Shown: positions 11,829-63,860 of the stretch, one piece after another
Position numbering within the stretch: position 1 is the stretch's first letter
Layout of the letters: every line of letters begins with the position of its first letter
The notes under the pieces: model-generated
Databases searched by the model: none
The model's input: the letters and a program-made list of their open reading frames with translations, nothing else
Told to the model about the DNA's origin: nothing
Position numbers and translations under genes: made by a program
Assembly (NCBI GenBank): GCA_016720545.1
Contig: JADKKK010000003.1
Coordinates: forward strand, 537,516-601,515
Reading direction: 5' to 3'
DNA length: 64,000 nucleotides
Source: Myxococcales bacterium
GTDB lineage: Bacteria > Myxococcota_A > Polyangia > Polyangiales > Polyangiaceae

Positions 11829-12539
11829 TCAGGGGGAGAGGCGCACGCGGGTCCACGCGCCGTCGGGGCCGCGGGTGTAGCGCACGCGGTCGTGGAGGCG
11901 GCTCGCGCGGCCCTGCCACAGCTCGACCTGCGTGGGCACGACGCGGAAGCCGCCCCAGCCGTCGGGGAGCGGCACCGGTCCGCCCTCGAAGCGCGCCGTC
12001 ACCTCGGCCATCTTGGCCTCGAGCTCGTCGCGCGACGCCAGCACGGCGCTCTGCCGTGACGCCCAGGCGCCGAGCTGGCTCTGGCGCGGGCGCGTGCGGA
12101 AGTACTCCCCCGACTCCTCCCGCGACACGCGCTCGGCGCGCCCCCTCACGCGGACCTGGCGCATCGCCCCGAGCCAGTCGAACACGAGGGCGCACGCCGG
12201 GTCGCGCGCGAGCTCACGCGCCTTGCCGCTCTCGTAGCTGGTATAGAAGACAAATCCCCTTTCATCTCGTGCTTTTAGCAGCACGATCCGGGCCTCGGGG
12301 CCGGCCTCTCCCAGGGTGGCGAGGGTCATCGCGTTGGGCTCGGGGAGGCCCGCCGCGAGGGCCTCGCCGAGCCACACGTCGAACGCGACGAGCGGGCACT
12401 CCGGCAGGGTCGCGGGGTCGATGCCGTGATCGCCGTACTCTTCCCGCAGCGCCGCGAGGGCGACGGGATCCACGCGCGTCGACGAGGGCGTCGAGGGCGA
12501 GGGCGAGGGCGAGGGCGAGGGGCGCGACGAGGGCGGCAT
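11829..12539 (-). CDS. pdxH: pyridoxamine 5'-phosphate oxidase
   Basis: RIVLLKARDERGFVFYTSYESGKARELARDPACALVFDW..RQVRVRG..ESGEYFRTRPRQSQLGAWASRQS...GWGGFRVVPTQVELWQGRASRLHDRVRY aligns along its full length to PdxH. There is an N-terminal (SP)6 extension. ATG at 12539; 12581 or 12620 are possible alternatives. Confidence 0.85.
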   Translation of the reverse strand: MPPSSRPSPSPSPSPSTPSSTRVDPVALAALREEYGDHGIDPATLPECPLVAFDVWLGEALAAGLPEPNAMTLATLGEAGPEARIVLLKARDERGFVFYTSYESGKARELARDPACALVFDWLGAMRQVRVRGRAERVSREESGEYFRTRPRQSQLGAWASRQSAVLASRDELEAKMAEVTARFEGGPVPLPDGWGGFRVVPTQVELWQGRASRLHDRVRYTRGPDGAWTRVRLSP

Positions 12540-17584: not shown

Positions 17585-19084
17585 GTGGAAGACCTCCCCG
17601 ACACCGCCTACCGACGCACCCTCGATCGCTACGCGCTCTACGGCGAGATCGCGGCCGGGGGGATGGCGCGCGTCCATTTCGGGCGAGTGCTCGGCGCGCA
17701 GAGCGTGCCGCGCGTGGTCGCCATCAAGTGCCTCCTGCCCGAGCTCGCGGTCGACCCCACCTTCGTCCGCATGTTCCTCGCCGAGGGCCGGCTCGCGTCG
17801 CGCGTTCGGCACCCGAACGTCGTCGCGACCCACGACGTCGTGTCGCTGCCCGCCGGCGCGGAGGGCTCGCCCGGCCAGCTCTTCCACGTCATGGAGTACG
17901 TGGCGGGTGACTCGCTGTCGCGGCTGGTGCGCAAGTCGCGCGAGCGCGGCGTCCCGGTGCCACCGCGCGTCGCGGTGAGCGTCGCGTGTGGCCTGCTCGA
18001 GGGGCTGCACGCGGCCCACGAGGCGAAGAGCGAGACCGGCGAGCCGCTCGGCCTCGTGCACCGCGACGTCTCGCCGCAGAACGTGATGGTCGGCGTCGAT
18101 GGCCTCGCGCGCGTGCTCGACTTCGGCGTCGCCACGGCGACCCACCTCGTGGACGAGGCGCCCGACCAGATCAAGGGCAAGGTCGGCTACATGGCGCCCG
18201 AGCAGCTCGCGCACGAGGGGGTCGATCGGCGGACCGACCTGTACGCCGCCGCCGTGGTGCTGTGGGAGACGCTCACGGGTCGACGCCTCTTCAAGGCCGA
18301 CAACCTCTCCGCCCTCATCGTGAAGGTGATGGCCGATCCGGTGGAGGTACCCAGCACCTACGCAGACGGAATCCCTAGCGATATCGACATGATACTCATG
18401 AAGGCGCTCTCGCGCGACGTGCGCGATCGGTGGACGACCGCGCGCGAGCTCGCGGTGTTGCTGGAGGGCGCGCTGCCGCCGGCGCCGGCGCGCGACGTGG
18501 GCGCGTGGGTCGAGGAGGTCGGCGGAGACCGCCTGCGGTACCGGGCCGAGGTCGTCGCGGCGATCGAGGCGCAGTCGATCGCCCACCTGAAGGTGCCGAG
18601 CGCGGCGCGCTCGCTCGGGCGCATCACGGTCGAGAGCGCGAGCTCCGATCTGACCGGCCTCGACGCGGACGCGCTGCCGGGCGCCGTCGAGCAGGCGCTC
18701 GCCAGCGATCCGCAGATCAAGGCCGTCATGCTGCGCCGCTCGCAGCCGCTCTTCGGGGCCGAGCCGTCGACGTCCAGGCTCCCTCAGCTTCAGGCCGGGC
18801 GCGCGAATCCCTGCGCGCCGGAGCGCGGGCAAGAGCCGCCGCCCGGGGCGCAAGCGACTCTTGGGGCCGCGCCCGTCGCGCCCGTCGCGCCCGTCGCGCC
18901 CGCGCCGTTCGCGCCGGTCGTGGACACCCCCGCTCCGACCCCACCGCGACCGCAGCCCGCGCGCGCTGCCAAGCGTGGCCTGAGCAGCGGCGCGCGCTCG
19001 GCGCTCCTCGCCCTCGGGGTGCTCGTGCTCATCGTGTGCGCGGCCTACGCGGGGCTCACCCTCGGCAGGATCGATCCGCCGTAG
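17585..19084 (+). CDS. Hanks-type serine/threonine protein kinase with C-terminal TM anchor
   Basis: GEIAAGGMARVHFG..VAIKCL, HRDVSPQNVMV, DFGVA and APEQ motifs. A Pro/Ala-rich linker, then a TM segment ALLALGVLVLIVCAAYAGL. GTG start. Confidence 0.85.
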   Translation: MEDLPDTAYRRTLDRYALYGEIAAGGMARVHFGRVLGAQSVPRVVAIKCLLPELAVDPTFVRMFLAEGRLASRVRHPNVVATHDVVSLPAGAEGSPGQLFHVMEYVAGDSLSRLVRKSRERGVPVPPRVAVSVACGLLEGLHAAHEAKSETGEPLGLVHRDVSPQNVMVGVDGLARVLDFGVATATHLVDEAPDQIKGKVGYMAPEQLAHEGVDRRTDLYAAAVVLWETLTGRRLFKADNLSALIVKVMADPVEVPSTYADGIPSDIDMILMKALSRDVRDRWTTARELAVLLEGALPPAPARDVGAWVEEVGGDRLRYRAEVVAAIEAQSIAHLKVPSAARSLGRITVESASSDLTGLDADALPGAVEQALASDPQIKAVMLRRSQPLFGAEPSTSRLPQLQAGRANPCAPERGQEPPPGAQATLGAAPVAPVAPVAPAPFAPVVDTPAPTPPRPQPARAAKRGLSSGARSALLALGVLVLIVCAAYAGLTLGRIDPP

Positions 19085-24816: not shown

Positions 24817-25233
24817 TCAGTCGTGAGAGTGCGCCGCGTCGGTGGCGGCGTCCGCCTGGGGCTTCGCGTCGGTCGCGGCGTCGCCCGAGCCCGCGTCGGC
24901 GGTCACCGGCGGCGCGGCCTTGCAGAGCGCGAGGCAGGAGTCCTTCTTCGCCACGCACGCCTCGTCGCTCGTCGCCGACTCCGCCGCTTCGTGGCACTCG
25001 TGGATCTGCCCGGTGCCCGGATCGACCGGGTGGCAGGCGTCGATGATGGCGAGGCACGTGGCGAACGAGGTCGTCCCGTGGGAGTGATCGTCCGAGCACC
25101 CCGCCCCGACGACGAGGGCCATGGTCGCGAGGGCGGAGGCGAAGAGCAGGGAGCGCAGGGAGCGCAGGGAGCGCAGGGAGCGCAGGGAGCGCAGGGAGCG
25201 CAGGGAGAACGAGGCGAGCGACGGCGACTTCAT
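24817..25233 (-). CDS. Cys/His-rich lipoprotein (putative metal-binding), with SLR-repeat signal peptide
   Basis: MKSPSLASFSLRSLRSLRSLRSLRSLRSLLFASALATMALVVGAGCSDDHSHG... The mature part has 9 Cys and HxH/CH pairs (IDACHP, HECHEAA, DAAHSHD). Confidence 0.5.
   Translation of the reverse strand: MKSPSLASFSLRSLRSLRSLRSLRSLRSLLFASALATMALVVGAGCSDDHSHGTTSFATCLAIIDACHPVDPGTGQIHECHEAAESATSDEACVAKKDSCLALCKAAPPVTADAGSGDAATDAKPQADAATDAAHSHD
25145..25210. repeat. 9-bp tandem repeat (AGCGCAGGG x7) inside the signal-peptide coding region
   Basis: Perfect tandem copies. On the minus strand they encode (SLR)n. Confidence 0.85.
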
Positions 25234-30082: not shown

Positions 30083-30201
30083 GGCGACTTGCGACTCCTA
30101 GCTGACGTTGCGGGGGCGGACGGCGAGACGAGACGGACGAGACGGACGAGACGAACGAGCGACACACGGACGAGACGGACGAGACGGCGCGCGGGCAGCG
30201 T

Positions 30202-31180: not shown

Positions 31181-33124
31181 ATGGGCTCCTCGACGTCGCG
31201 ACGCGCCGCCCGTGCGGTCGCCGTGGTCGGCGCGCTCGCCGCGTGTGCGGCGTGTGCGGCGTGCGGCAGAGGCGCGCGCGACGCACGGCCGGTGTACGCG
31301 ACGGCCAGCACGATGGAGGCGACGCTCGCCTTCGAGGAGCTGCGCGACGCGTGGGAGCGGCGCGACGTAGGCGCCGACCGTCAGCGCGAGGCGCTCGAGC
31401 GGCACCTCAAGCGCTTCCCGGGGGACGGGACGGCGACCACGGCGCAGCTCTACCTCGCGTTCCTGCTCATGCAGGCGGGCGAATATTACAAGGCCGACGC
31501 GCTGCTCGCGCTCCTCGAGTCGAACCCCAGGGCCCTGCGCGCCGGCCCGGAGCGCGACATGTTCGCCGTGGCGCGGGCCAAGTCGCTGCGGCACCGCGGC
31601 GCCCACCCGCAGGCGCTCGCGCTGCTCCAGCCGCTCGCCGGCAAGGCCGTCGACGAGACCCTCCGCGGCATCTTCCTCGAAGAGCTCTGCCTCGCGGCGC
31701 TCGGCGCTGGCGAGGACTACGAGGCGATCGGCTACATGGACGCCTGGCTGCGCGGGGTGTCCGAGGACAAGCGCGTCGCGAGCCGCGCGAAGATCGCAGC
31801 CGGCCTCGAGGGCATGCCGGCCGGCGTGCTCCAGGCCACCTACCGCGCCATGCGCACGGCCCAGCAGACCGGCTACAGCGCGGAGATCCAGCGCCTGGTC
31901 GCGATGAGGGTCGCCGCGATCGTCGTCCAGAACGAGGACGCGACGCTCGCGCGATGGCTCCTCGACGTGACGCCCGGGGGATCCGACGCGCTCGGCGACT
32001 CGGGCCCCACGATCCTCGAGCTCGCCGCGAGCCGACGAGGCCTCCGCGAGGTGCAGGGCCGCACCGTCGGCCTCTTGCTCTCCACGGGCGACGCGGAGCG
32101 CCGAGAGGCCGCCGCCGCCGTGCTCCGCGGGGTCTCTTGGGCCCTCGAGCTCCCGAAGGCGCCGGCGGCGCGCACCGACCCGCTCCGCCTCGTGGTGCGG
32201 ACCGACGCGAGCGAGGGCAAGGGGTTGGCCTCCGACCTGGCGATGGAGGAGCTCTTCGGCGAGGGCGCCGGGGTGGTGCTCGCCGGCCTCGATGGGCGCT
32301 CGGCCGACCACGCGCTCAAGTGGGGCGAGGACCACGGCCTCCCGGTCGTTCTCCTGCATCCCCCCGCGCGCCAGCCAGTCCCCACCCAGGCGGGCTACGT
32401 GATCGGCGAAGCGCGGGCGACGCAGGCCGCCATGCTCGCGCGCGCGCTGGCCCCGCTCGGCGATCGGCGGGTGCAGCTGCTCACCACCTCGCGGGGGAAG
32501 GGCCGCGACGCGCTCGAGGCGGCCCTGGCGCTCGGCGGACTCGGCAGGGCACGTGAGACGGTCGACTGCGACGCCGAGGCGCCGCGCCCGGGCATGCCGC
32601 GATTCCCCTTCGAGGCCTGGGCGAAGGAGCGCGTCCGCACCTTCGTGGTCGCGGGCGCGAGGGAGTGCCTGACCGACACGCTGGCCGAAATCAAGCTCGC
32701 GACGCGTGGCGCCGCCGCCGGTCCAAGACCGCTCGTCGGCGTGGTGCTCGACACCGAGCCGCCCGCAGAGCCCTCCCCTGCCCCCGCGCCGCGGGTGTTC
32801 GCCGTCAGCGCGGGCATCCTGCCGCTCGAGCGGGACCGCGTCGCCGCCCTTGGTGATCCGGAGGTCGCTGCATATTACAACGAATTCGGTCAGGTGCCTG
32901 GGTGGTGGGCCGCGCTCGGGCGCGACGCGGGGATCCTCGCGCGCCAGGCCGTGAGCGTGCTGCCCTCGAACACCACGGCAGACCCCAAGGCGGTCGCCCA
33001 GCGCCACGCGATCGTCGCCGCCGCGCTCGGCCGAGCGCAGGCGCCTTTGTGGACCACCGAGGCCAGCGGCTTCGCGGGCCAGCGCGTGCTCTCGCGCTCA
33101 CTGCGGGTCGTGGAGCTGAAGTAG
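31181..33124 (+). CDS. secreted hypothetical protein
   Basis: Signal MGSSTSRRAARAVAVVGALAACAACAACG. 647 aa, Ala/Leu-rich, with TPR-like helical content likely. The start is trimmed from 30992. Divergent from sdhC. Confidence 0.55.
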   Translation: MGSSTSRRAARAVAVVGALAACAACAACGRGARDARPVYATASTMEATLAFEELRDAWERRDVGADRQREALERHLKRFPGDGTATTAQLYLAFLLMQAGEYYKADALLALLESNPRALRAGPERDMFAVARAKSLRHRGAHPQALALLQPLAGKAVDETLRGIFLEELCLAALGAGEDYEAIGYMDAWLRGVSEDKRVASRAKIAAGLEGMPAGVLQATYRAMRTAQQTGYSAEIQRLVAMRVAAIVVQNEDATLARWLLDVTPGGSDALGDSGPTILELAASRRGLREVQGRTVGLLLSTGDAERREAAAAVLRGVSWALELPKAPAARTDPLRLVVRTDASEGKGLASDLAMEELFGEGAGVVLAGLDGRSADHALKWGEDHGLPVVLLHPPARQPVPTQAGYVIGEARATQAAMLARALAPLGDRRVQLLTTSRGKGRDALEAALALGGLGRARETVDCDAEAPRPGMPRFPFEAWAKERVRTFVVAGARECLTDTLAEIKLATRGAAAGPRPLVGVVLDTEPPAEPSPAPAPRVFAVSAGILPLERDRVAALGDPEVAAYYNEFGQVPGWWAALGRDAGILARQAVSVLPSNTTADPKAVAQRHAIVAAALGRAQAPLWTTEASGFAGQRVLSRSLRVVELK

Positions 33125-33183
33125 ACGAGCTGACGTAGACGAGCTGACGTAGACGAGCTGACGTAGACGAGCTGACGTAGACG
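33121..33183. repeat. 14-bp tandem repeat GTAGACGAGCTGAC x4.6
   Basis: Perfect copies spanning the stop codon of the upstream gene. Every unit contains TAG and TGA. Confidence 0.85.
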
Positions 33184-33216
33184 AGGCGCGATCCTGGGGC
33201 CCAAGCCGTGACTGCG

Positions 33217-33954
33217 TCAGCGCGCGGCCTCCGCCGAAGCGTCGACCACCACCAGCCGGTACGACGCCATGTCGAGGTGAAAGTGGTCCGCGTGGCCCGG
33301 GTAACCCGGGCCGAGCACCACGCGAAACAGCGACGTGTCCCGCGCGAGCCGGAGCGCGAGGCGGTGCAAGAAGCGGCGGTGCAGCGCGCGCACGGGAGAC
33401 TCACGCCCACGGGCCGCCCCGACCGCCCCGAAATGGGCGGCCACGCTCACGTCGAAGGCGCCTCGGAGCGCGCGCGGCGCGCCGGCCGGCAGCGCCGCCC
33501 CAGGGGGCAGCGCGCCGAAGCTGAAGGCGTCGACGTCGATGGCGTTGCCGAGGCCATGCTCGCTCACCAGGTGGGGATACGCCGGGATGCGCCGGCAGTT
33601 GAAGGTCCCCAGGTGGTGCATGCGGATCGGCGGGCGCCCGTACACCTCGATCGCCACGGCGCGCGCGGCGTCCTCGAGCCCGCGGAGCTTCGCGACGAAC
33701 GCCGGGTGCACGCGGGCCGGCGCGTGGAAGCGCAGCGCGCTGCCCGAGTAGTCGGTGAGCGGCATGGCGGGGCAGCGCACCGGCCCCCGCGCGGGGATCT
33801 CCCGCGAGACCTCGTCGAGCGCGTAGGTGTCGTCGGCGCGCGCAGGCGATGTGTGAAGCGCGAAGCCGAGGACGACCGACGCGGCGACCGGAGCGATGCG
33901 TGCGACCGACGCGACCGACGCGACCGACGCGACCGACTGGTTCAGGAGGGTCAT
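33217..33954 (-). CDS. extensin-like C-terminal domain family protein, secreted
   Basis: Signal MTLLNQSVASVASVASVARIAPVAASVVLGFALHTSPARA. C-terminal region with the conserved Cys/His pattern of the bacterial extensin-like family. Contains a 9-bp repeat (GCGACCGAC x4) encoding SVASVASVA. Confidence 0.5.
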   Translation of the reverse strand: MTLLNQSVASVASVASVARIAPVAASVVLGFALHTSPARADDTYALDEVSREIPARGPVRCPAMPLTDYSGSALRFHAPARVHPAFVAKLRGLEDAARAVAIEVYGRPPIRMHHLGTFNCRRIPAYPHLVSEHGLGNAIDVDAFSFGALPPGAALPAGAPRALRGAFDVSVAAHFGAVGAARGRESPVRALHRRFLHRLALRLARDTSLFRVVLGPGYPGHADHFHLDMASYRLVVVDASAEAAR

Positions 33955-37604: not shown

Positions 37605-37643
37605 CTAGCCGCGCCGCTCGCCCGGGCTCGCTTGCATGTTCAT
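37605..37643 (-). promoter_or_regulatory. copy B of conserved leader element / mini-ORF (MNMQASPGERRG*)
   Basis: ATGAACATGCAAGCGAGCCCGGGCGAGCGGCGCGGCTAG... is shared with the copies at 25261-25359 and 40846-40914. It lies 51 nt upstream of the thioesterase start, in the same orientation as that gene. Confidence 0.5.
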
Positions 37644-37758
37644 GGCGAGACCTCGCCTTCGGCTCGGGCACGCCATCGACCTTGGTTCGCCCCTTCGGGG
37701 CTCACTTTCAGGTTCCTCTTGTCAACCCTGGAGAAAGAGTCCTAAACCCGCATCCACC

Positions 37759-38415
37759 ATGTCCGAAGCCACCGCCGACGCCCCCACGAAGACCACCGAC
37801 GGCGCGTTCCTGCGCTCCCGGCTCGGCAGCTTGTTGGCCGTGTTCCCGCTCGGCGTGTGGACCGTGGGCCACTTGTGGAACAACCTCGCCGCCTTCAAGG
37901 GCGGCGGCGCGTGGCAGAGCGCCGTCACCGAGTACCCGCACCCCCTCGCGCACCTCGCGACGATGATCGTGGTGCTCCTGCCCCTCGTGCTCCACATGAT
38001 CTGGGGCATGGCGCGCATGGCGCAGGCGCGCCCGAACCTGCACCGGCACGTGTCGTTCAACAACCTGAAGTACGTCGTGCAGCGCCTCTCGGCGATCGGC
38101 CTCATGCTGTTCCTCGGCGCGCACATCTGGCTCGCGATGCTCCACCCCCGCTTCGTGGAGGGTCACCCCGAGCCCTTTGCCGACATCGCCGGGCAGATGC
38201 GGCACCACGGGCCGACGCTCGCGGTCTACGTGCTCGGCACGCTCGGCGTGTCGTTCCACCTCGCGAACGGCCTCCACACCTTCGCGATGGGCTGGGGCGT
38301 CGTGGCGAGCCGCCGCGCTCTCCGCAAGCTCGACGCCGCCGTGATCGGTCTGTTCCTCGCCCTGCTCGGCATGGGGTGGGCGGTGATCTACGCGCTCTGG
38401 TCCGCCGGCGCCTGA
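37759..38415 (+). CDS. orphan SdhC-like cytochrome b558 membrane protein (paralogue of sdhC)
   Basis: Five TM helices and the same conserved His motifs as sdhC (HLWNN, FHLANGL). No adjacent sdhA/sdhB. The ATG at 37759 is trimmed from the track's 37636. Confidence 0.7.
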   Translation: MSEATADAPTKTTDGAFLRSRLGSLLAVFPLGVWTVGHLWNNLAAFKGGGAWQSAVTEYPHPLAHLATMIVVLLPLVLHMIWGMARMAQARPNLHRHVSFNNLKYVVQRLSAIGLMLFLGAHIWLAMLHPRFVEGHPEPFADIAGQMRHHGPTLAVYVLGTLGVSFHLANGLHTFAMGWGVVASRRALRKLDAAVIGLFLALLGMGWAVIYALWSAGA

Positions 38416-38534
38416 CCCTCGCTCGACGGGAAAAATCGACGCGGTCGAGCGGGCGGTGATCGATCCGCGCCGGCGGCACACCAGACCCCGCGAACCCCAT
38501 CACGACCGCCCCGCGGGGCCGCGGGAGTTTTCTC

Positions 38535-38930
38535 ATGCACGCTTCGTCCGCTGCCCCTCCCTCCCTGGCGACGCCTCACGGGCTCGGGCGCCTCGCTCTT
38601 GCGGGCGCCGTCGTGCTCGCCCTCCTCGCGCTCCACTGCGGCGGAGGCACCCAGGGCGCCGACACGGGCGCGGTGTGCCCGCCGGGCTCGACGCTCACCT
38701 ACGCGAGCTTCGGCAAGCCGTTCATGGACAACTACTGTGTCTCTTGCCACTCGGGCAAGGAGCGCCCGAACCTCGACTCGGCGACCTCCGTCAAGCGCGA
38801 GATCCGCGGGATCCTCAGCACCACGGCCGCCGGCCCCAAGGCCACGAACGACTCGATGCCCACCGACAGCGACGTCCCTCAGGACGAGCGCGTGAAGCTC
38901 GGCGAGTGGCTCGCCTGCGGCGCTCCGTAA
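38535..38930 (+). CDS. small secreted protein with CxxCH haem-binding motif (putative c-type cytochrome)
   Basis: Signal-like N-terminus LALAGAVVLALLALHCGGG. Single CVSCH motif in FMDNYCVSCHSGKERPNL. 120 nt downstream of the orphan sdhC-like gene on the same strand. Confidence 0.5.
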   Translation: MHASSAAPPSLATPHGLGRLALAGAVVLALLALHCGGGTQGADTGAVCPPGSTLTYASFGKPFMDNYCVSCHSGKERPNLDSATSVKREIRGILSTTAAGPKATNDSMPTDSDVPQDERVKLGEWLACGAP

Positions 38931-38944
38931 ACGGGAGGGCGGCG

Positions 38945-39439
38945 CTAGATCATCTCGAAGTACCGCGAGTGGATCGCCACGGTCACGAGGACCGCCACCT
39001 CGCGCGGCACACCGTCGGCCGCCTCCACCACGAAGCGATCCCGCACGTGCGTGAGGCCCTCGCGCTTCTTCACCTCGATGGCCACCTTGCCGGCGGCGTC
39101 GGCGCACCTGAAGTCGTACTCGAGCGCGAGCACGCCCGCGTCGGCGGTGTAGGTCTCGCTTCCCACCTTGAGCGCGAGGGTCTTCTTGAACGCGATCGAC
39201 GGGAAGGTCACGCTCGCGACCTCCTTGCGCTCGCCGTCGAGCACGTGGAACGCGGTCTTGTTGAAGTTGCCCTCCAGGCTCGCGAGCTCCTTGTCGCTCC
39301 CGTCGACGATGGCGAACCGCGGCGTGAGGCTCATCGGCGCGCCGCGCACGGTGAGCGCCACGTCTTCTTTGCCCTTTTCGCGCACGTCGTACGTCGTCGC
39401 GACGGCCGCCAAGCGCTGAACAACCTCGTACTGACCCAT
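38945..39439 (-). CDS. LURP-one-related / tubby-like (DUF567) family protein
   Basis: 164 aa. Composition and spacing resemble the LOR/DUF567 family by eye. The assignment is tentative. Confidence 0.45.
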   Translation of the reverse strand: MGQYEVVQRLAAVATTYDVREKGKEDVALTVRGAPMSLTPRFAIVDGSDKELASLEGNFNKTAFHVLDGERKEVASVTFPSIAFKKTLALKVGSETYTADAGVLALEYDFRCADAAGKVAIEVKKREGLTHVRDRFVVEAADGVPREVAVLVTVAIHSRYFEMI

Positions 39440-39453
39440 GGTGGTACCTTTCT

Positions 39454-39525
39454 CGTGTCGCTCGTGTCGCTCGTGTCGCTCGTGTCGCTCGTGTCGCTCG
39501 TGTCGCTCGTGTCGCTCGTGTCGCT
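39454..39525. repeat. 9-bp tandem repeat CTCGTGTCG x8 (CGACACGAG on the minus strand), immediately upstream of a start codon
   Basis: Eight perfect copies. They end 15 nt upstream of the ATG at 39439, in the divergent intergenic region shared with livK. Confidence 0.9.
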
Positions 39526-39663
39526 CGTCGTAGGGGTTCGCGGCGACGCGTGACCGCTTTGCGGCGGCGCTCGCGCACGGTCACGAGCAGCGTACGGGCG
39601 CCGAGGCGCCGCGGGGAACAAATCTCCACGGTTTCGTGGTACCCGTCCATGCCTGGAGGGATC

Positions 39664-40818
39664 ATGCTCACTCGCCGAAGGTTCACGCTCTCGCTCGCCA
39701 CGCTCGGCCTCGTGGTCGTCGCCGCCGCCGGCTCCACCGGCTGCGAGAAAAAGAGCGACGATCTCGTGGTCGGCGCGTTCCTCTCGCTGTCCGGCAGCGA
39801 CTCCACCTTCGGCACCGACACCCGCGACGGCATCGAGCTCGCGCTCGACGAGACCAACAAGGCCGGCGGCGTGAAGGGCAAGAAGGTCAAGGTCCTTTAC
39901 GAGGACGACAAGTCTCTCCCGCAAGAGGCGTCGAACAAGGTCCGGCAGCTCATCGACCGCGACAACGTGCTCGCGATCCTCGGCGAGGTGGCGTCGAGCC
40001 GCACGATGGCCGGCGGTCTCATCGCGAACACGAAGAAGGTGCCGCTCGTCACGCCTTCGTCCACGGCGGTCGAGGTCACGAAGGACCGCGAGTACGTCTT
40101 CCGCGTGTGCTTCACCGACGACCAGCAGGGCGACGTCGCGGCGCGCTTCGTGTTCGAGACCCTCAAGAAGAAGAAGGTCGGCCTCTTCTTCGCCGCCCAA
40201 GACAACTACTCGTCCGGCCTGGCGGCCTCTTTCAAGGAGCGCTTCGTGAAGCTCGGCGGCCAAATCGTCGTCGACAAGGGGTTTCAGAAGGGCGAGACGA
40301 ACTTCACGACCTACCTCTCCGAGCTGAAGTCGAAGGACCCGGAGGTCATCTTCGTACCTGTATACTACAACGACATGGTGCAGATCGCGCGGCAGGCCAA
40401 GCAGGCCGGCATCCCCGGCACCACGTTCGTCGGCGGCGACGGCTGGGACTCGGCGGAGCTCACGGAGGGTGCGGGCGCGGAGCTCGAGGGCGCCTACTTC
40501 ACGAACCACTACGCGCCAGACGTACCGTGGAAGAACTCGGCGGCCTTCGTGACCGCGTTCAAGGCCCGCTTCAACCGCGAGCCGACGAGCCTCGCGGCCC
40601 AGGGCTACGACGCCGCGAAGCTCCTCTTCGACGCCATCAAGCGCGCGCCCGAGACCAACCGCGAGGCCATCAAGGTGGCGCTCGCCGACACGAAGAACTT
40701 CGAGGGGGCCACCGGGCAGCTCACGATCGACAAGAACCACAACGCGAACAAGCCCATCGTCGTGGTCCAGATCAAAGGCAAGAAGTTCAAGTTCACGACC
40801 CAGCTCATGAGCCAGTAG
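39664..40818 (+). CDS. livK: branched-chain amino acid ABC transporter substrate-binding lipoprotein
   Basis: RBS GGAGGG, then ATG at 39664. Signal and lipobox LVVVAAAGSTGC. LivJ/LivK (periplasmic-binding type I) family similarity throughout. Confidence 0.85.
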   Translation: MLTRRRFTLSLATLGLVVVAAAGSTGCEKKSDDLVVGAFLSLSGSDSTFGTDTRDGIELALDETNKAGGVKGKKVKVLYEDDKSLPQEASNKVRQLIDRDNVLAILGEVASSRTMAGGLIANTKKVPLVTPSSTAVEVTKDREYVFRVCFTDDQQGDVAARFVFETLKKKKVGLFFAAQDNYSSGLAASFKERFVKLGGQIVVDKGFQKGETNFTTYLSELKSKDPEVIFVPVYYNDMVQIARQAKQAGIPGTTFVGGDGWDSAELTEGAGAELEGAYFTNHYAPDVPWKNSAAFVTAFKARFNREPTSLAAQGYDAAKLLFDAIKRAPETNREAIKVALADTKNFEGATGQLTIDKNHNANKPIVVVQIKGKKFKFTTQLMSQ

Positions 40819-40845: not shown

Positions 40846-40914
40846 ATGAACATGCAAGCGAGCCTCCGGCGAGCGGCGTGCCTATGCCACGCGACCGAAG
40901 GGAGGAAGGCATGA
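40846..40914 (+). promoter_or_regulatory. copy C of conserved leader element / mini-ORF (MNMQASLRRAACLCHATEGRKA*)
   Basis: ATGAACATGCAAGCGAGCCTCCGGCGAGCGGCGTGCCTATGCCACGCGACCGAAGGGAGGAAGGCATGA. The mini-ORF stop overlaps the livH ATG (ATGA). GAAGGGAGG doubles as the livH ribosome-binding site. Confidence 0.5.
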
Positions 40915-45218: not shown

Positions 45219-47189
45219 CTAGGGTTCGACGGGTGCCGCGGGCTTGGGCGCTGGCTCGACAGGCTTGGGCGCCGGCTCGGCGGGCTTGGGCTCGACCGGC
45301 TTGGGCTCGGCGGGCTTGGGCTCGACCGGCTTGGGCTCGACCGGCTTGGGCGCCGCGGTCTCCGCGGGCTTCGGCTCCGCGGGCTTCGGCTCGGCGGGCT
45401 CGGCGGGCTTCGGCTCCGCGGGCTTCGGCTCGACGGGCGCGGCGGGCTTCGGCTCGGCGGGCTTGGGCGCGACAGGCGCGACCGCAGGCTTCGGCGCGAC
45501 AGGCGCCGAAGGTGCGACGACCGGGACGGCCGCGGACGCCGCGGCGCTCGCGGGTGCTGCAGGGGCCGCGTCGACGGCGGGAGCCGCGTCCTCTCCGGTC
45601 GCAGCGCTGGCGCTGGCGGAGGGTGCAGCAGCCGCCGAGGGCGCCTCGGACGGGGCGGCGGACGGCAGGGGCGCGACGCTCGCCGAGGTCGCCGGGGGCG
45701 CCCCGCCGAACAGGTGCGCCTTGTAGGCGAAGATGCCACCGCCGGCGAGGAGCGCGACCGCGACGACGGCCCCGATGAGCGCCCCACCCCCGCGCTTCTT
45801 GGGCTCCGGGAGCGGCATCACCTGCTGGCCCGCGCTGGCCATCGCGAGCTCGGCGACCGGCGGGGGCGCGGGGGTCGAGGCCATCTGCAGGGGCACGACC
45901 TGCGACGCGCGAGGCTCCGCAGGCTCGTACGCGGGCACGGCGGGCGCTGCGCCCGGGAGCGACGCCCGCTCGGCAGGCTCCGCGCCACGGATGGACGCGA
46001 GGAGGTCGTCGGTGCCGCCGAGCGACGGCGCCGGTCCGCTCGGGAGGCCGCCCGCCACCGTGTACAGCGGGTTGGCCTGCACCTCGTCCATGGAGCCGCC
46101 GGCCTCGCGGAGGGCCTCCTCGAGGAGCTCGGCGGCCTGCTTCATCACCGTGGGCTCGGCGCGCTCGAGGGCGTTCTGCGGCTTGCGCGGGCCATCCACC
46201 GGGAACATCGGCTTGGCCGAAACCGGCGGATCGTCTGGGAAGAGCTTCGACCGATCGAGCGGCAGGGTCGATGCGAAGTCGGTGCCCACGATGGGGCGCG
46301 TGGCCTCGAGCTCGCGCAGCTCTGCTTTCTTGGCGGCCTCGGCCGCGGCGAAATCGGGGAGCGCATCGCGGCTCAGCGGCAGGGTGGACGAGAACCCTTG
46401 GGATTCGTCAGGTCCCGCCTTCGGCAGCGCGATCATCGTGGGCGGATCGGGGTCGAACGGCGACGGGTACCCGACGGGCTCGCGCTCACGCGGCTGCTCC
46501 AGGTTGGCGAAGAACTCGTCGTCGGAGGAGCCAGGGGTGTCGGTGCCGAACGTGAGCGCGCCGAAGGGCTGCGTGGGCGCGGCCACGGGGACGGGCATCT
46601 CGGAGGTCTTGTTGAGTTGGGACGCGAGCCCGAGCGGCACTCCAGCCCGACGCCGCGACTCGACCGGTGCCTCGTCGGCCGGTGGAGGCGGAGGCGGCAG
46701 CGGCTCGGCCGCGGGGCTGGGATCCCAGGGGACCGTGCCTTTCAGGGCGGCGCGCGCGGGGGGAGGTGCGGGGGTGACCGCGCGCGGCGGCGGCGCGGAA
46801 GGCTTCGGCAAGGGCGCGGCGGCCGTCGGCTCGGCCGGCGGGGCGGCCAGCGCGGCGGTCACGAGGCGATCGATGGTCTGCCGCGAGACATCGTCGATCT
46901 TGATGAACTTGACGCCCATGCCAGCGGGGCGCTCCGCCGCGGCCTGGGTCGGCTCGCGCTTCCACACGACCCGCCCGACACCCGTGAGGGAGGACGACTC
47001 GCCCGCGACGATGATCTCGAGCTTCAGGAGGGTGCCCGGAGCGAAAGGGGTCTGGGTCTTGACGAACACCCCACCGACGCTGACGTCGAGCGACTGGTTG
47101 TCGATGAACTCGTCGTTGGTCGCGCTCTTGTACCGGACCGTGAGGCCGGGGACGCGCGCGCGCTTGTCCTTACGCGTATCGGAGGTCAT
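45219..47189 (-). CDS. PilZ-domain protein with long Pro/Ala-rich low-complexity region, TM segment and PAEPK-repeat tail
   Basis: N-terminal PilZ signature RKDKRARV...DVSVGGVF. TM segment ALIGAVVAVALLAGGGIFAY. C-terminal (PKPAEPKPVEP)n repeats encoded by 15-bp DNA repeats at 45230-45480. The start is trimmed to the ATG at 47189. Confidence 0.7.
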   Translation of the reverse strand: MTSDTRKDKRARVPGLTVRYKSATNDEFIDNQSLDVSVGGVFVKTQTPFAPGTLLKLEIIVAGESSSLTGVGRVVWKREPTQAAAERPAGMGVKFIKIDDVSRQTIDRLVTAALAAPPAEPTAAAPLPKPSAPPPRAVTPAPPPARAALKGTVPWDPSPAAEPLPPPPPPADEAPVESRRRAGVPLGLASQLNKTSEMPVPVAAPTQPFGALTFGTDTPGSSDDEFFANLEQPREREPVGYPSPFDPDPPTMIALPKAGPDESQGFSSTLPLSRDALPDFAAAEAAKKAELRELEATRPIVGTDFASTLPLDRSKLFPDDPPVSAKPMFPVDGPRKPQNALERAEPTVMKQAAELLEEALREAGGSMDEVQANPLYTVAGGLPSGPAPSLGGTDDLLASIRGAEPAERASLPGAAPAVPAYEPAEPRASQVVPLQMASTPAPPPVAELAMASAGQQVMPLPEPKKRGGGALIGAVVAVALLAGGGIFAYKAHLFGGAPPATSASVAPLPSAAPSEAPSAAAAPSASASAATGEDAAPAVDAAPAAPASAAASAAVPVVAPSAPVAPKPAVAPVAPKPAEPKPAAPVEPKPAEPKPAEPAEPKPAEPKPAETAAPKPVEPKPVEPKPAEPKPVEPKPAEPAPKPVEPAPKPAAPVEP

Positions 47190-49943: not shown

Positions 49944-50810
49944 ATGCGACGCCGCGAGAGGCTCACGTGGACTGCGCGCTCCGTCGCTCCCCTCGCGATC
50001 GGGCTCGTCGCCTGCGCCAGCGCGGCGGCAGATCCGCCCGTGGGGCCGGGGCCGGCCGCCGCCGACGCGGGCGCGGCCCTCGTCGACGCTGGCGAGGTCC
50101 CGGGCTCTGAGCCGGGCGCGATGGACGCGGCGGTCGACGCGGCGGTCGACGCGGCGGTCGACGCGCGGGCCGGCTGCGGCCCCTTCGCGAGCGCGCGGGA
50201 CCGCTTCGTTTGCGCGGGTAACGGGACCAGCCGCGGGAAGTGCCCCGACGGCGTCTCTCGCCAGGAGGAGGCGTGCCCGCGCGGCTGCCTGCGGGCACCC
50301 TCGGGAAAAGATGCAGTTTGCATGGGAACGACCACGACCTGGTCGTGCACGGGGTCGGCGGCGACGGAGAAGGCGCAGAGCGGGGACTACATCGTCACGG
50401 CGTTCGGCTGCTGGGTCGACGCGGCCGGCGGCAAGCACGGCGACGCGGGTGACAACTGCGTGCCGAGCTGCCTCGGCGACCTCCGGCGCCTCGGGCTCTG
50501 CGCGGCGACGGACGCCGGCCGAACCTGCGAGGAGAAGCTCACCTGGTTCGTGGCCGACGCTGGCCGCTTCGGCTGCGGGGCGCGCGTGCGAGTAGAGAAC
50601 CCAGCGAACGGCAAGGCCGTCGTCGCCGTGTCGATCGACCTCGGGCCGGCCTGCAGCGTCGAGCGCGTGGCGCAGGGGGCGGTGCTCGACGCGAGCGGTC
50701 GCGTGAGCCGCGAGCTCTTCGGCAGCGATCGCGGGGTCGTCGATCGGTCGCTCGTGCACGTGATCGAGGTCGACGCGTCCACGCCGCTGGGCCCCGCGGG
50801 CCCTCGCTGA
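49944..50810 (+). CDS. Cys-rich lipoprotein with RlpA-like double-psi beta-barrel (DPBB)-like C-terminus
   Basis: Signal MRRRERLTWTARSVAPLAIGLVACASAAA. The C-terminus FGCGARVRVENPANGKAVVAVSIDLGP...VHVIEV resembles the RlpA/expansin-like DPBB fold. The coordinate follows the track's frame; the printed line 49921 appears one nt short. Confidence 0.45.
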   Translation: MRRRERLTWTARSVAPLAIGLVACASAAADPPVGPGPAAADAGAALVDAGEVPGSEPGAMDAAVDAAVDAAVDARAGCGPFASARDRFVCAGNGTSRGKCPDGVSRQEEACPRGCLRAPSGKDAVCMGTTTTWSCTGSAATEKAQSGDYIVTAFGCWVDAAGGKHGDAGDNCVPSCLGDLRRLGLCAATDAGRTCEEKLTWFVADAGRFGCGARVRVENPANGKAVVAVSIDLGPACSVERVAQGAVLDASGRVSRELFGSDRGVVDRSLVHVIEVDASTPLGPAGPR

Positions 50811-50822
50811 TCCGGCTCGCCC

Positions 50823-52292
50823 TCAGCGCGCAGGCGGCGCAGGCGGCGCAGGCGGCGCCGTGCTGTCCTTGGGGCCTCTTCGGCGCTCCGCGGCCTCGGC
50901 CGCGACGTCGTCCGGCAAGAACGAGTAGTTCGACCCGATGACGCCCACGAGGTTCCAGCGCGTCAGACGGGAGACCCCCTCCGGCTGCGCGCCGAGGTTG
51001 CTGAGCGAGAGCTCGCCCGTGAGCACCTTCGTGTCGGCCTGGCCGTACGAGAAGCTCGCGCCAAACGAGCCGCGGGTCTGGACGCCAATCAAGCTGAGCG
51101 CCGCGCTCAGCCCGAACATGTGGACGCGATCCTGCTCGCCCTGCGCCGGCACCGACGAGATGTCGGTGAAGGCCCCGACATCGATCGCGACCGAGCGGGT
51201 CACCCGCACCTCCGCGCCCAGGTTCAGGTTGGGCTGGAGCACGCGCTCGAGCTTCGACTCCTCGCCGGCGCCGGGGGTGACGCCGTCGATGGGCACGGCG
51301 GCGAGGTCGTACGCGGTGCGCACCGTGTGGGGGAGGTTCACGGAGGCGTCGGCGCTCAGCGTGGTGCTCTCCGTGGTGTAGGCGACGCCGACCGCGAAGC
51401 GCATCGGGAAGCTGGCGGCGCTCTTTCCGGTGAAGCGCGTGGGGATGGCGTCCGCGAGCGGCTGCCCGGTGGTCCGGTCGATGCCGGCGAGGGTGAGGTT
51501 CGAGCTGCTCGTGTAGCTGCCGAACACGTCGAGCGTGGGGGTGACCAACGCGAGCCCCAGCGACAGCGCGCGCGTGGGCGTCCAGCGCGCGCCCGCCTTC
51601 GCGCGGAGGCCCACGGCGAGGACGTCGCTCTGCAGATCGGCGGCGATGAACTCGGTGCCTCCACCGGCGTTCGGGCGGGTGACGAGGAGCGTGTTCGCGC
51701 CGCTCATCACACGCATCATTCCGCCGAGCGACACCCCGAGGCCGAGGGATGGGGTGATCTGGTAGGCATACCCGACGTCGCCCGCCAGGACGTCGTCGCG
51801 CCAGGTGCCCGAGAGGAAGTTCCGCGTGTTGCTCGAGGGCGCCGTCTTCAGGGCGATCGAGTACGGGATCGACACTGCGAAGCCTAGCGCCTGGCGGCCG
51901 GCGCCCGACGCCTCGCCGTCCGCGAGCACGTACACGCCGCCGACCATGCTGGGGATCGAGTGGTACGTGGTCGCGGAGAGGTTCTGCCCATCGCCGAGCG
52001 CCCTAGGCACCGACAGGCTCTGGATCATGTACGCGTTCGCGACGAGCTCCAGGTGCGAGTGTCGTGCGCAGACGAGCCCGGCGGGGTTGTAGTGCAGCGC
52101 GCCCTCGTCGCAGGCGAGGGCCGTGTAGGCCCCGCCCATTCCAGCGGCGCGACTCCCGATCAAATAGAGCTGATGATTGTCGTAGACAGTAGGCTCTGCG
52201 ACGGCGCCGGCTCGCGCGGCGTACGCGAAGGCCACCAGCCACGCGGCGGCGGCGAGCAGCGTCGAGGCGCGGAGCCTTCCCCCAAGGACCAT
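50823..52292 (-). CDS. outer-membrane beta-barrel-like protein, hypothetical
   Basis: Signal MVLGGRLRASTLLAAAAWLVAFAYAARAGA. Alternating amphipathic beta-strand-like composition rich in Gly/Tyr/Thr/Ser. The track ORF 50823-53891 has a ~530-aa artefactual extension; the ATG is at 52292. Confidence 0.55.
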   Translation of the reverse strand: MVLGGRLRASTLLAAAAWLVAFAYAARAGAVAEPTVYDNHQLYLIGSRAAGMGGAYTALACDEGALHYNPAGLVCARHSHLELVANAYMIQSLSVPRALGDGQNLSATTYHSIPSMVGGVYVLADGEASGAGRQALGFAVSIPYSIALKTAPSSNTRNFLSGTWRDDVLAGDVGYAYQITPSLGLGVSLGGMMRVMSGANTLLVTRPNAGGGTEFIAADLQSDVLAVGLRAKAGARWTPTRALSLGLALVTPTLDVFGSYTSSSNLTLAGIDRTTGQPLADAIPTRFTGKSAASFPMRFAVGVAYTTESTTLSADASVNLPHTVRTAYDLAAVPIDGVTPGAGEESKLERVLQPNLNLGAEVRVTRSVAIDVGAFTDISSVPAQGEQDRVHMFGLSAALSLIGVQTRGSFGASFSYGQADTKVLTGELSLSNLGAQPEGVSRLTRWNLVGVIGSNYSFLPDDVAAEAAERRRGPKDSTAPPAPPAPPAR

Positions 52293-57258: not shown

Positions 57259-58461
57259 ATGCGAGCTCTCCTCTACAGCGCGGCGTGCACCCTCGGACTT
57301 CTTTCGCTCGGGCTCGGCGCGTGCAGCGACGGGCCAACCAGCGCCCCCGGGAGCTCCGACGACTCGATCATCGGCGGCGTGGACGCGACCGGGGCCAAGC
57401 TGAACGCGATCGGCACGGTGGGCCACAAGGCGTTCGACGACACCTTCGACTACTTCTGCACGGCGACGCTCATCGCGCCGACGGTGGTGCTCACGGCCAA
57501 GCACTGCGCGGCCCGCGACCCGAAGAGCGGCCACACGATGCTCGACGAGGAGCCCATCTACTTTGCGGTGGGGCCCGACAGCACCAAGCCGCTGAAGACC
57601 GTCCGGGTGAAGAGCGTGCTCCTCGCGCCGGTGCACGACGCGGGCTTCGTCAGCCTCGGGTCGGACGTGGCGCTCTATTTCCTCGAGGCGCCCATCGACG
57701 ACATCACGCCGCTACGCGTCGACGGCGCGCTGCTCAGCGAGTCGAAGGTGGGCCAGAAGTTCACCGCCGTGGGCTTCGGCGTGCACGATCGGGAGCGCAA
57801 CTCGGGGCAGCGCAAGGCCGGGCAGCTCACCCTGCAAGGCGTGAGCGGCAAGCCGGTGCAGAGGGTGTTCCCCACCTACGAACAGTTCGCGGCGTTCATC
57901 GCGAAGCACGACGGCGAGGACTACGTAAAAGCGCAGGAAGAGCGCATGAAGAAGTTCTACGACCTCGAGCTCCTGAAGGGGTACGAGGCGTACCTCGGCC
58001 TTGGCGACAACGACGCGCAGCCGTGCAGCGGCGACTCTGGCGGGCCGCTGCTCGCGCGGGTGAAGGACGAGAACGTGGTCGTCGCGGTGGTCTCAGGGTC
58101 GTTCAAGGGCCGCACCTACCCCTGCAGCGTCGTCGGCGAGGTCTACGCCACCATCGGCCCGCGGGTGATCGATCTGCTCGACAGCGCCGCGCCCGAGTGC
58201 GCGGGCGTGCCGGTGTGGGGCACCTGCGACGCCACGAACAAAGTGGCCACTCGGTGCGTGTCGAAGAAGGAAGGTCCGCAGCGCGTGAACAAGATCGACT
58301 GCTCGGCGCTCGGGCAGGTGTGCAAGATCAACGCGGAGAACACGGCGTTCTGCGACGACCCCGAGGCGCCGCCGCCGCCGCCCCCGCCCCCGCCGGCCGA
58401 CGCGGGCCCCAGCGACGCGGGCCCCAGCGACGCGGGCCCCAGCGACGCGGGCCCGGGCTGA
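57259..58461 (+). CDS. S1 (trypsin-like) serine peptidase lipoprotein
   Basis: Lipobox LLSLGLGAC. Catalytic triad motifs TAKHC (His), DVAL (Asp region), GDSGGPL (Ser). C-terminal (PSDAG)3 tail. Confidence 0.8.
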   Translation: MRALLYSAACTLGLLSLGLGACSDGPTSAPGSSDDSIIGGVDATGAKLNAIGTVGHKAFDDTFDYFCTATLIAPTVVLTAKHCAARDPKSGHTMLDEEPIYFAVGPDSTKPLKTVRVKSVLLAPVHDAGFVSLGSDVALYFLEAPIDDITPLRVDGALLSESKVGQKFTAVGFGVHDRERNSGQRKAGQLTLQGVSGKPVQRVFPTYEQFAAFIAKHDGEDYVKAQEERMKKFYDLELLKGYEAYLGLGDNDAQPCSGDSGGPLLARVKDENVVVAVVSGSFKGRTYPCSVVGEVYATIGPRVIDLLDSAAPECAGVPVWGTCDATNKVATRCVSKKEGPQRVNKIDCSALGQVCKINAENTAFCDDPEAPPPPPPPPPADAGPSDAGPSDAGPSDAGPG

Positions 58462-60120: not shown

Positions 60121-60152
60121 CCTCACGGGCGTGCGCTCCGGCATCGCCACGC

Positions 60153-60196
60153 GGGTGCGCGCGTGCGCGGGTGCGCGGGTGCGCGGGTGCGCGGGT
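60153..60196. repeat. 8-bp tandem repeat GTGCGCGG x5, immediately upstream of a lipoprotein gene
   Basis: GTGCGCGC GTGCGCGG GTGCGCGG GTGCGCGG GTGCGCGG, ending 15 nt before the ATG at 60211. Confidence 0.85.
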
Positions 60197-60210
60197 GGTA
60201 GACTGGCTCC

Positions 60211-63578: not shown

Positions 63579-63596
63579 CGCGTCATGCTAGTCCCC

Positions 63597-63860
63597 GGGG
63601 GGGGGGGTCCCCCCCGGGGGGGGGGGGGCCGCCGCCCCCCCCCCGGGGGGGGGGGGGGGGGGCCGCGGGGGGGGGGGGGGGGGGGTGTGCGGGGGCGGGG
63701 GGGGGGCGCCCGGGGGGGCCACCCCCCCCCCCCCCCGCCCCCGGGGGGGGCGCCCCCCCCCCCCCGGGGGGGGGGGGGGGGGGGGGGGGGGGCGGCCCCG
63801 CCCCCGGGGGGGGGCCCCCCCCCCCCCCCCCGGCCCCGGAGGGGCGACCCGGGCCGGGAG
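63597..63860. repeat. ~265-bp block composed almost entirely of alternating long poly-G and poly-C runs, flanked by 10-bp inverted repeats
   Basis: Runs such as G11, C7, G13, C11, G20, G23 and C16, with very few A/T, then an A7 tract. Flanks GCTAGTCCCC (63587-63596) and GGGGACTAGC (63875-63884). It begins ~20 nt upstream of the S51 peptidase start codon. Confidence 0.8.

Follow-up and report, generated by a model that had tools for sequence, protein, structure and literature searches.

We analysed a 64-kb window of the genome of an uncultured Polyangiaceae bacterium (the whole stretch of 64,000 nucleotides taken from contig JADKKK010000003.1), in which a tandem array of a 9-nt unit lies between two divergent genes, one encoding a LOR-like protein and the other a livK-like periplasmic binding protein. 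This focal array is real, perfect, non-coding and lineage-specific, and it is one of a class of such arrays in the window. It belongs to a known kind, the bacterial variable-number tandem repeat (VNTR), and is probably an ordinary member of that kind with little regulatory effect. With moderate confidence, we favour the reading that it is a young VNTR, made by replication slippage and nearly neutral, in the leader of the LOR-like gene. More interesting than the focal array itself is how densely young, perfect arrays occur at the gene ends of this Polyangiaceae lineage.

Tandem Repeats Finder (TRF) reports positions 39452-39528 as a single array of period 9 with 8.6 copies, 100% matches, no indels and a score of 154. 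On the plus strand, the array reads (CTCGTGTCG)x8 at 39452-39523 and ends in a partial unit, CTCGT; its minus strand, which is the sense strand of the LOR-like gene, reads ACGAG(CGACACGAG)x8. It thus consists of short head-to-tail units of high identity, as a repeat locus does. A first-pass annotation of this DNA had described a perfect 9-bp repeat of eight copies in the divergent LOR/livK spacer, and TRF and direct reading bear out the repeat as well as its placement. The annotation put the array at 39454-39525, where an array does lie, but this is offset by 2 nt, and the gap to the start codon, given as 15 nt, is 12 nt (39440-39451). These 12 nt on the minus strand, AAAGGTACCACC, consist of the Shine-Dalgarno (SD) sequence AAAGG and a 7-nt spacer, after which comes the ATG of the LOR-like gene (39439). 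The array is 135 nt from the divergent livK-like ATG.

Chance does not account for the array. No perfect array of at least three copies arose in 30 order-5 Markov simulations of the window, and the 18-mer dimer of the focal unit, allowing up to 3 mismatches, was expected 0.57 times and observed 8 times, of which 7 were inside the array. The array and matching flanks recur in 11 independent assemblies, among which are an 814-kb and a 104-kb contig.

From the upstream stop (39580) to the ATG at 39439, the LOR frame has no other ATG, GTG or TTG, and the MGQYEVVQ N-terminus of the LOR-like protein is kept in homologues from five other metagenome-assembled genomes (MAGs). Hence, the array is non-coding. 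Its LOR-sense strand contains A, C and G only, and the unit CGACACGAG has neither T nor GG, so that a TAnnnT -10 element, a GG..GC sigma-54 element and a start codon are all impossible inside the array. Since the array can hold no promoter element and the next 12 nt hold the SD, the LOR promoter should lie beyond the array, in or near conserved blocks of the spacer. One such block is CGTACGCT (39589..39596, minus strand), which is invariant in four lineages and is a candidate -10 of the LOR-like gene, as its TACGCT fits TAnnnT. The other is the livK-adjacent block at 39613..39663, GGGGAACAAATCTCCACGGTTTCGTGGTACCC...GGAGGGATC, which is conserved across lineages and is the probable livK promoter, leader and ribosome-binding site (RBS) together with a shared control region. 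The array is therefore placed upstream of everything conserved when seen from the livK side, and from the LOR side it most likely belongs to a transcribed leader of about 140 nt, as far as the sequence tells.

The source organism comes from activated sludge or wastewater, and GTDB records give its nearest species as Polyangiaceae bacterium. The identical 164-aa LOR-like protein occurs on about 20 contigs, among them those of the NCBI MAGs GCA_963852875.1 (the 814-kb contig) and GCA_016704525.1 (the 104-kb contig) and others from wastewater or activated-sludge metagenomes. These conspecific contigs are about 99.9% identical to the window, and the differences are almost all whole-unit indels at tandem arrays. 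An exact-protein look-up of livK gave two contigs, one of which ends inside the array, and a scan of Joint Genome Institute (JGI) metagenomes with the ATG-proximal junction gave one contig, which was already in the set.

Two sister species (95% protein identity) retain the LOR/livK pair without the focal array. At the array site they have a degenerate, T-poor, CGAC-rich tract of other length, for example GCGACGAAGCGACGACGCGACCACGCGACCAGG in contig L012, which is a plausible proto-repeat. A third relative, L036 (SRR25822718), has a 122-nt spacer and no repeat. The relatives retain an equivalent SD, AAGAGG or GGGAGG, at 7 nt from the ATG, and in the spacer alignment all length variation between lineages falls between the invariant CGTACGCT and the SD. 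Compared with window positions 37696-39885, L036 has 98.2% identity across the Sdh_cyt, 131-aa and LOR genes and 87.8% in livK, and it is precisely in the LOR/livK spacer that identity drops. A recombination event may thus have had its breakpoint in this spacer and replaced the livK side of L036; for this reason L036 is unusable for dating the array. With a degenerate tract in the sister species and no repeat in L036, the focal array is a recent, lineage-specific expansion of a pre-existing CGAC-type motif in a length-tolerant region.

In 11 complete conspecific contigs, we counted 8, 8, 7, 8, 7, 3, 8, 8, 6, 4 and 8 copies of the unit, between flanks that are otherwise identical, apart from a 1-nt insertion in L002. 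Contigs L017, L027, L028 and L038, which break inside arrays, were excluded from these counts. The contigs with 3, 4 and 6 copies are short-read contigs (MEGAHIT k141_ names, or a SPAdes NODE at 3.7x coverage). We modelled assembler collapse as the shortest path through the de Bruijn graph of the locus and obtained 3 copies at k 27-33, 4 at k 37-41, 6 at k 55-59, 7 at k 67-69 and 8 at k of at least 77. The default k lists are 21, 29, 39, 59 and upwards for MEGAHIT and 21, 33, 55 for metaSPAdes. These values predict exactly the observed 3 (k=29/33), 4 (k=39) and 6 (k=55/59) copies, and never 5. The 3-copy sample is also short by 15 bp at a 15-bp array at 58398, as a collapse product at k=29-41 would be, and the 4- and 6-copy contigs have one private single-nucleotide polymorphism (SNP) in common, which fits one lineage sized differently by two assemblers. 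The 3-, 4- and 6-copy alleles are thus probable artefacts, and since they match collapse products, 7 versus 8 copies alone is credible as polymorphism. The 7-copy allele is present in two assemblies with different private SNPs, i.e. on two haplotypes. It is plausibly real, being outside the default-k predictions, yet k=67-69 would yield 7 copies, and so it is unproven.

Two suggestions of the first-pass annotation are supported here: the array could be recent, as the sister species without it indicate, and it is a slippage-type substrate, as conspecific assemblies differ almost solely by whole-unit array indels. The annotation also proposed that an invariant eight copies in all strains would speak against a switch; at face value the count runs from 3 to 8, but the credible spread shrinks to 7 versus 8.

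The focal array is not alone. Taking as perfect any array with a unit of 5-30 nt, at least 3 copies and a length of at least 24 nt, we found 11 perfect arrays in the window, six of them of period 9. By comparison, three 50-kb stretches of actinomycete DNA of about 71% GC (Nonomuraea and Streptomyces records) had 3, 0 and 0 perfect arrays, and the simulations had 0. Under the looser definition of U'Ren et al., which counts TRF arrays longer than 30 bp with at least 80% similarity, there are 328 arrays/Mbp in the window, 220-280 in Nonomuraea and 0 in a Streptomyces plasmid; Burkholderia pseudomallei has 70-102 arrays/Mbp (PMC1853098). Hence, the excess in this one window is specific to perfect, young arrays.

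The arrays cluster at gene ends. Three of the 11 lie just upstream of start codons, 4 are in signal peptides or N-terminal parts, 4 are C-terminal or run across a stop codon, and none is in a gene core, so that 7/11 are near starts and 4/11 near stops. The gene core makes up about 58% of the sequence, and the binomial probability of at most 1 of 11 arrays falling there is about 1e-3. Where an array is coding, its unit length is always a multiple of 3, while the units of 8 and 14 nt belong to non-coding arrays. As the units are unrelated in sequence, the arrays are not a dispersed element family.

Besides the focal array, two arrays precede genes. The one at 60150..60197 (plus strand), (CGCGGGTG)x6 with one variant unit, ends 13 nt before the ATG (60211) of a 334-aa putative lipoprotein, and the one at 30127..30187 (minus strand), an imperfect 9-bp array of the CCGTCTCGT type with 81% matches, lies within an operon, between an sdhC-like gene and sdhA, 45 nt before the sdhA ATG. 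Among the arrays in N-terminal regions, 25146..25207 (minus; 9 bp x 6.9, perfect) encodes an in-frame (SLR)n (x7) in the signal peptide of a putative lipoprotein, 33902..33937 (minus; 9 bp x 4, perfect) an in-frame (SVA)n in a signal peptide, 50124..50165 (plus; 12 bp x 3.5) a (DAAV)n in the linker that follows a lipoprotein signal peptide, and 12492..12521 (minus; 6 bp x 5) a (PS)n near the N-terminus of a coding sequence (CDS). A further perfect in-frame repeat, (ACA)x2.6 at 31241-31263, runs across a possible lipobox; the proteins with repeats in or directly behind their signal peptides are putative lipoproteins and secreted proteins. Towards the other end of genes, 33113..33185 (plus; 14 bp x 5.2) spans the stop codon and 3' spacer of convergent genes, 58398..58454 (plus; 15 bp x 3.8, perfect) is in the C-terminal tail of a CDS, 50828..50858 (minus; 9 bp x 3.4) encodes (PPA)n in the last codons of a CDS, and 18868..18902 (plus; 9 bp x 3.9, perfect) is in the C-terminal low-complexity part of a CDS.

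When the conspecific contigs are aligned, these arrays account for nearly every indel. At 60150, two independent assemblies have a 3-unit allele; one of them is from a sample (ERZ965205) in which the 77-nt focal array is resolved at full length, and collapse of the window's own sequence would leave the variant unit in place. At 30127, the two long-contig MAGs are one 9-nt unit apart, and they also show a CCC-triplet difference to the window. Hence, the sibling arrays at 60150 and 30127 are robustly polymorphic. On its plus strand, the 60150 array also forms a stable predicted DNA hairpin (-19 kcal/mol, z -2.5), and the lipoprotein downstream has no family match; with its 8-nt non-triplet unit and envelope-protein target, this array is a better candidate for modulating expression than the focal array. 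The centre of the 30127 array contains GTGTCGCTCGT, which is the focal unit motif on the opposite strand. Longer, degenerate coding repeats lie in large open reading frames (ORFs) at 6813-7317 and 45241-45480, with units of 42/84, 33/66/99 and 15/39/54 nt and 62-92% matches by TRF; these are a different and older class than the perfect short arrays.

The closest likeness to this class is found in B. pseudomallei, whose VNTRs have 6-9-bp units in 4-10 copies, are many per genome and are often found a short way upstream of ORFs (U'Ren et al. 2007, PMC1853098). As here, they are mostly outside gene cores (about 30% of theirs are inside ORFs or within 40 bp upstream), units within genes are multiples of a triplet while non-triplet units are outside, and whole units are gained or lost between conserved flanks. 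At 11 per 64 kb, perfect arrays are denser here than the 70-102/Mbp of B. pseudomallei, but the criteria differ, and Nonomuraea is also high by the loose one. The first-pass annotation held such repeats to be uncommon in high-GC soil bacteria; this view does not survive ten other perfect arrays in the same window and the abundance of 6-9-bp VNTRs in B. pseudomallei at 68% GC (PMC1853098). B. pseudomallei is a pathogen, whereas our organism is an uncultured environmental myxobacterium of the predator type. For slippage itself there is a precedent within the phylum: in mutation-accumulation lines of Myxococcus xanthus, about 69% of spontaneous indels were single-unit tandem-repeat changes, including one of a 16-nt unit (PMC11069108), so that slippage is the dominant indel process there and operates in myxobacteria, as it seems to here. 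That study concerns mutation events, unlike the standing, long, perfect arrays of our window, and dense 9-bp arrays are not reported in it. Our literature search on tandem repeats in Polyangiaceae found nothing.

We folded LOR leaders with 0-14 units and found that the mean unpaired probability from the SD to the AUG is flat, at 0.63-0.64 for 2-14 units. The native leader folds no better than its shuffles (z = -0.22), and the focal array alone (77 nt) reaches only -14 kcal/mol. We found no complementary tract for the array, the best inverted match being 14 nt at 79%. As DNA, the array has less structure on either strand than shuffled sequence (z +1.0 and +2.6), and structure-poor array DNA points to plain misalignment slippage without hairpin-stabilised intermediates, as far as the folding models go. 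Because the array is periodic, the sequence beside the SD stays unchanged when units are gained or lost, at any copy number of at least 2. The leader does not resemble a known structured RNA such as a riboswitch or attenuator: it matches no Rfam family at E<=1, and a start codon for a leader peptide is impossible in the T-free strand.

From these results, we infer transcription, a slippage origin and near-neutrality for the focal array, and we propose the following course of events. Replication slippage, by simple misalignment of 9-nt units, would make a young VNTR and keep its units homogeneous, and perfect short arrays would accumulate in the genome window wherever they are tolerated. The focal array would sit between the LOR-like promoter region and the SD and, once transcribed, give the 5' leader an unstructured stretch free of U. 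Gain or loss of units would then alter leader length alone and leave promoter geometry, the RBS-adjacent sequence and the reading frame untouched. The effect on LOR or livK expression would be nil or small, and the array would persist as nearly neutral.

Several points weigh against this account. The transcription start, and hence the placement of the array in a leader, is read from the sequence, and near-neutrality from computed folding. Repeats in 5' untranslated regions or promoters do tune expression in Haemophilus influenzae hmw (PMC12721329), and so do such repeats in Mycobacterium tuberculosis (PMC12817950). Three of the four non-coding arrays are within 45 nt upstream of a start codon, so that selection is possible beside tolerance. 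The repeat-richness of the window rests on perfect arrays in a single window, as its 328/Mbp by the looser TRF criterion is not much above Nonomuraea. Lastly, copy-number polymorphism of the focal array is weakly documented, given that 3, 4 and 6 copies match collapse and that 7 may arise at k=67-69.

The main rival is that the focal array acts as a rheostat: it would be hypermutable, in the leader or upstream, and its number of units would tune LOR or livK by degrees. The routes could be leader length, mRNA stability, or the distance and helical phase from the shared control region to the LOR start, and the outcome would be population heterogeneity. We regard this as possible but rather unlikely. 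In its favour, the array is 12 nt before the start codon and beside the SD, the truly polymorphic 60150 array holds the same position before a lipoprotein gene, the focal array may have 7 versus 8 copies on distinct haplotypes, and a role of this kind is discussed for VNTRs (PMC1853098). One precedent is hmw1A/hmw2A of H. influenzae, in which a short repeat of variable copy number, (ATCTTTC)n, lies between promoter and start codon and is transcribed in the leader, as we suppose for the focal array (PMC12721329). In hmw, the 7-bp repeats pair with a G-rich partner to make a long hairpin that RNase III cleaves, and expression falls with repeat number (PMC12721329). The focal array, in contrast, has no complementary arm with which to form an RNase III-sensitive hairpin, its leader is unstructured relative to shuffles, and the computed accessibility of the SD and AUG is independent of copy number from 2 to 14.

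The promoter repeats of M. tuberculosis offer a second precedent (PMC12817950): they too are in high-GC DNA upstream of genes, vary in copy number between strains and are obscured by short-read assembly. They are reported to act by altering promoter strength (PMC12817950). To act likewise, the focal unit or array would have to carry promoter elements, and the 9-nt unit, without T or GG on the sense strand, cannot. Further against a rheostat, the array is missing in close relatives that have the same gene pair, the gene downstream lacks an evident signal peptide and does not look like a usual contingency gene, and similar arrays occur in the tails of proteins and in 3' spacers, to which a role of this kind does not apply.

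A broader version of this idea is that the lineage may maintain many hypermutable perfect arrays at the 5' ends of genes as contingency loci that diversify the expression and export of envelope proteins among the cells of a population in this predatory social bacterium, with the focal array as one graded knob. The sites in question are leaders 12-45 nt before start codons and the n-regions or linkers of lipoprotein signal peptides, and copy changes in the signal-peptide and linker arrays (25146, 33902, 31241, 50124) would alter the length of the n-region or linker. We consider this proposal improbable and offer it as speculation.

It is very unlikely that the focal 9-mers are an iteron-like array, i.e. 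reiterated operator sites for a regulator of LOR or livK. They are direct repeats in a divergent control region, and their unit dimer is over-represented here alone, but with a period of 9 bp successive sites face different sides of the helix, sister species have the gene pair without the array, and the 9-mer occurs elsewhere in the window 3 times, all solitary, versus 2.0 expected. The array thus lacks the conservation, helical phasing and motif reuse of iterons, and the window has ten other, unrelated arrays whose units do not resemble the focal one.

Still less credence goes to phase variation by promoter spacing, in which a unit change would shift the -35/-10 or -10/RBS spacing and act as an on/off switch. 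Classical contingency loci of Neisseria and Haemophilus have homopolymer or di- to heptanucleotide tracts between -35 and -10, or frame-shifting tracts in a CDS. The focal array is a perfect repeat, and it shares with them closeness to a gene start and, presumably, slipped-strand mispairing. It differs in being neither a promoter spacer nor frame-shifting, as it is non-coding with a 9-nt unit, and its target is not a surface, restriction-modification or host-interaction gene. The first-pass annotation had placed it inside the -10/-35/RBS-spacing region; this fails because the array is 77 bp against a promoter spacer of 16-18 bp, its sense strand has no T, and the 12 nt before the ATG hold the SD, beside which the sequence is constant. 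The promoter-spacing switch that the annotation derived from this placement is contradicted by the anatomy. The two blocks that the lineages have in common, CGTACGCT and 39613-39663, are on the far side of the array, and no sigma-70 consensus promoter was found in 39300-39800.

A small ORF is a more doubtful reading yet. Plus-strand positions 39455-39553 could encode a 32-aa hydrophobic peptide, M(SLV)n...VVGVRGDA, which the JGI pipeline called on L004, L008, L032 and L037 with a GTG start and a GGTGG 10 nt upstream, but this ORF is antisense to the LOR translation-initiation region, has no promoter candidate, is absent in sister species and would change length with each copy change, and spurious ORFs fill every frame at 72% GC. 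Least probable of all is that the array or its length is an assembly or sequencing artefact: the window's assembly family does contain G/C homopolymer junk and short-read assemblers mis-size the array, but the 8-copy array with identical flanks is found in at least 7 independent assemblies made by different methods, including the 814-kb and 104-kb contigs.

The homopolymer junk is seen at 63590-63840, where about 250 nt of G and C homopolymer runs lie between genes and the alignment of the conspecific contig L021 ends at 63596. In L002 (GCA_016704525.1), similar junk replaces the 55-nt livK-livH spacer (40859-40914), which is intact in the window and in six other covering contigs. These runs are most likely an assembly or polishing artefact of this MAG family that masks real sequence. 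An apparent 55-bp inversion in L002 at 40860-40913 was rejected, as it is G/C homopolymer junk and not a reverse complement.

As for the genes on either side, the LOR-like gene (38945..39439, minus strand) encodes 164 aa with no evident signal peptide. Its LOR/LURP-one label is weakly founded, coming solely from a precomputed PF04525 (LOR) entry; a local hmmscan against Pfam-A gave no match even at E<=10, and NCBIfam and PDB sequences gave nothing meaningful. The livK-like gene (39664..40818, plus strand) matches Peripla_BP_6 (E 2e-69), and GGAGGG precedes its ATG at 39664. Between the CGTACGCT block and the array, the spacer (39529..39588, minus strand) is unique and lineage-variable, and it contains an 8-bp inverted repeat, CGTGACCG-N21-CGGTCACG (39549-39556 / 39578-39585), which is present in the focal species only. 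On the livK side, comparison of the 39613-39663 block with homologous spacers (L011, L012, L036) showed TGGTA-N9-TGC conserved in two lineages with varying bases in between. This element resembles a sigma-54 promoter for livK, but its GG-to-GC spacing is 11 nt versus the canonical 10 nt. A CCACG-N4-CGTGG palindrome is also present in this part of the spacer.

Upstream in the window, a 73-bp segment (37623-37695) between an Sdh_cyt-like gene and a 4HBT thioesterase gene shows a presence/absence polymorphism. It is present in the window, L001 and L007, absent in L003-L006 and replaced by a 70-bp variant in L002. The segment is bounded by CGGGCTC and CGGGGCTC and has short inverted repeats within it, e.g. 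GGCGA/TCGCC; a deletion between short direct repeats may have caused the polymorphism, or the segment may be a very small mobile element. The polymorphism alters the length of the predicted thioesterase ORF, which is 153, 156 or 182 aa.

By itself, the focal array is a strain-typing marker and a small example of how a leader can grow by slippage. The copy-number alleles on MAG contigs carry a more general lesson, as alleles of perfect arrays can be pure assembler artefacts with sizes predictable from k; since the collapse sizes match k, repeat polymorphism claimed from MAGs needs read-level checks. If the density of arrays at gene ends holds genome-wide, this lineage would be a good natural system for slippage and selection in a very GC-rich environmental genome. 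If, in addition, the arrays at 5' ends did serve as a set of contingency loci, the biology of such loci, so far known largely from host-associated pathogens, would extend to environmental myxobacteria.

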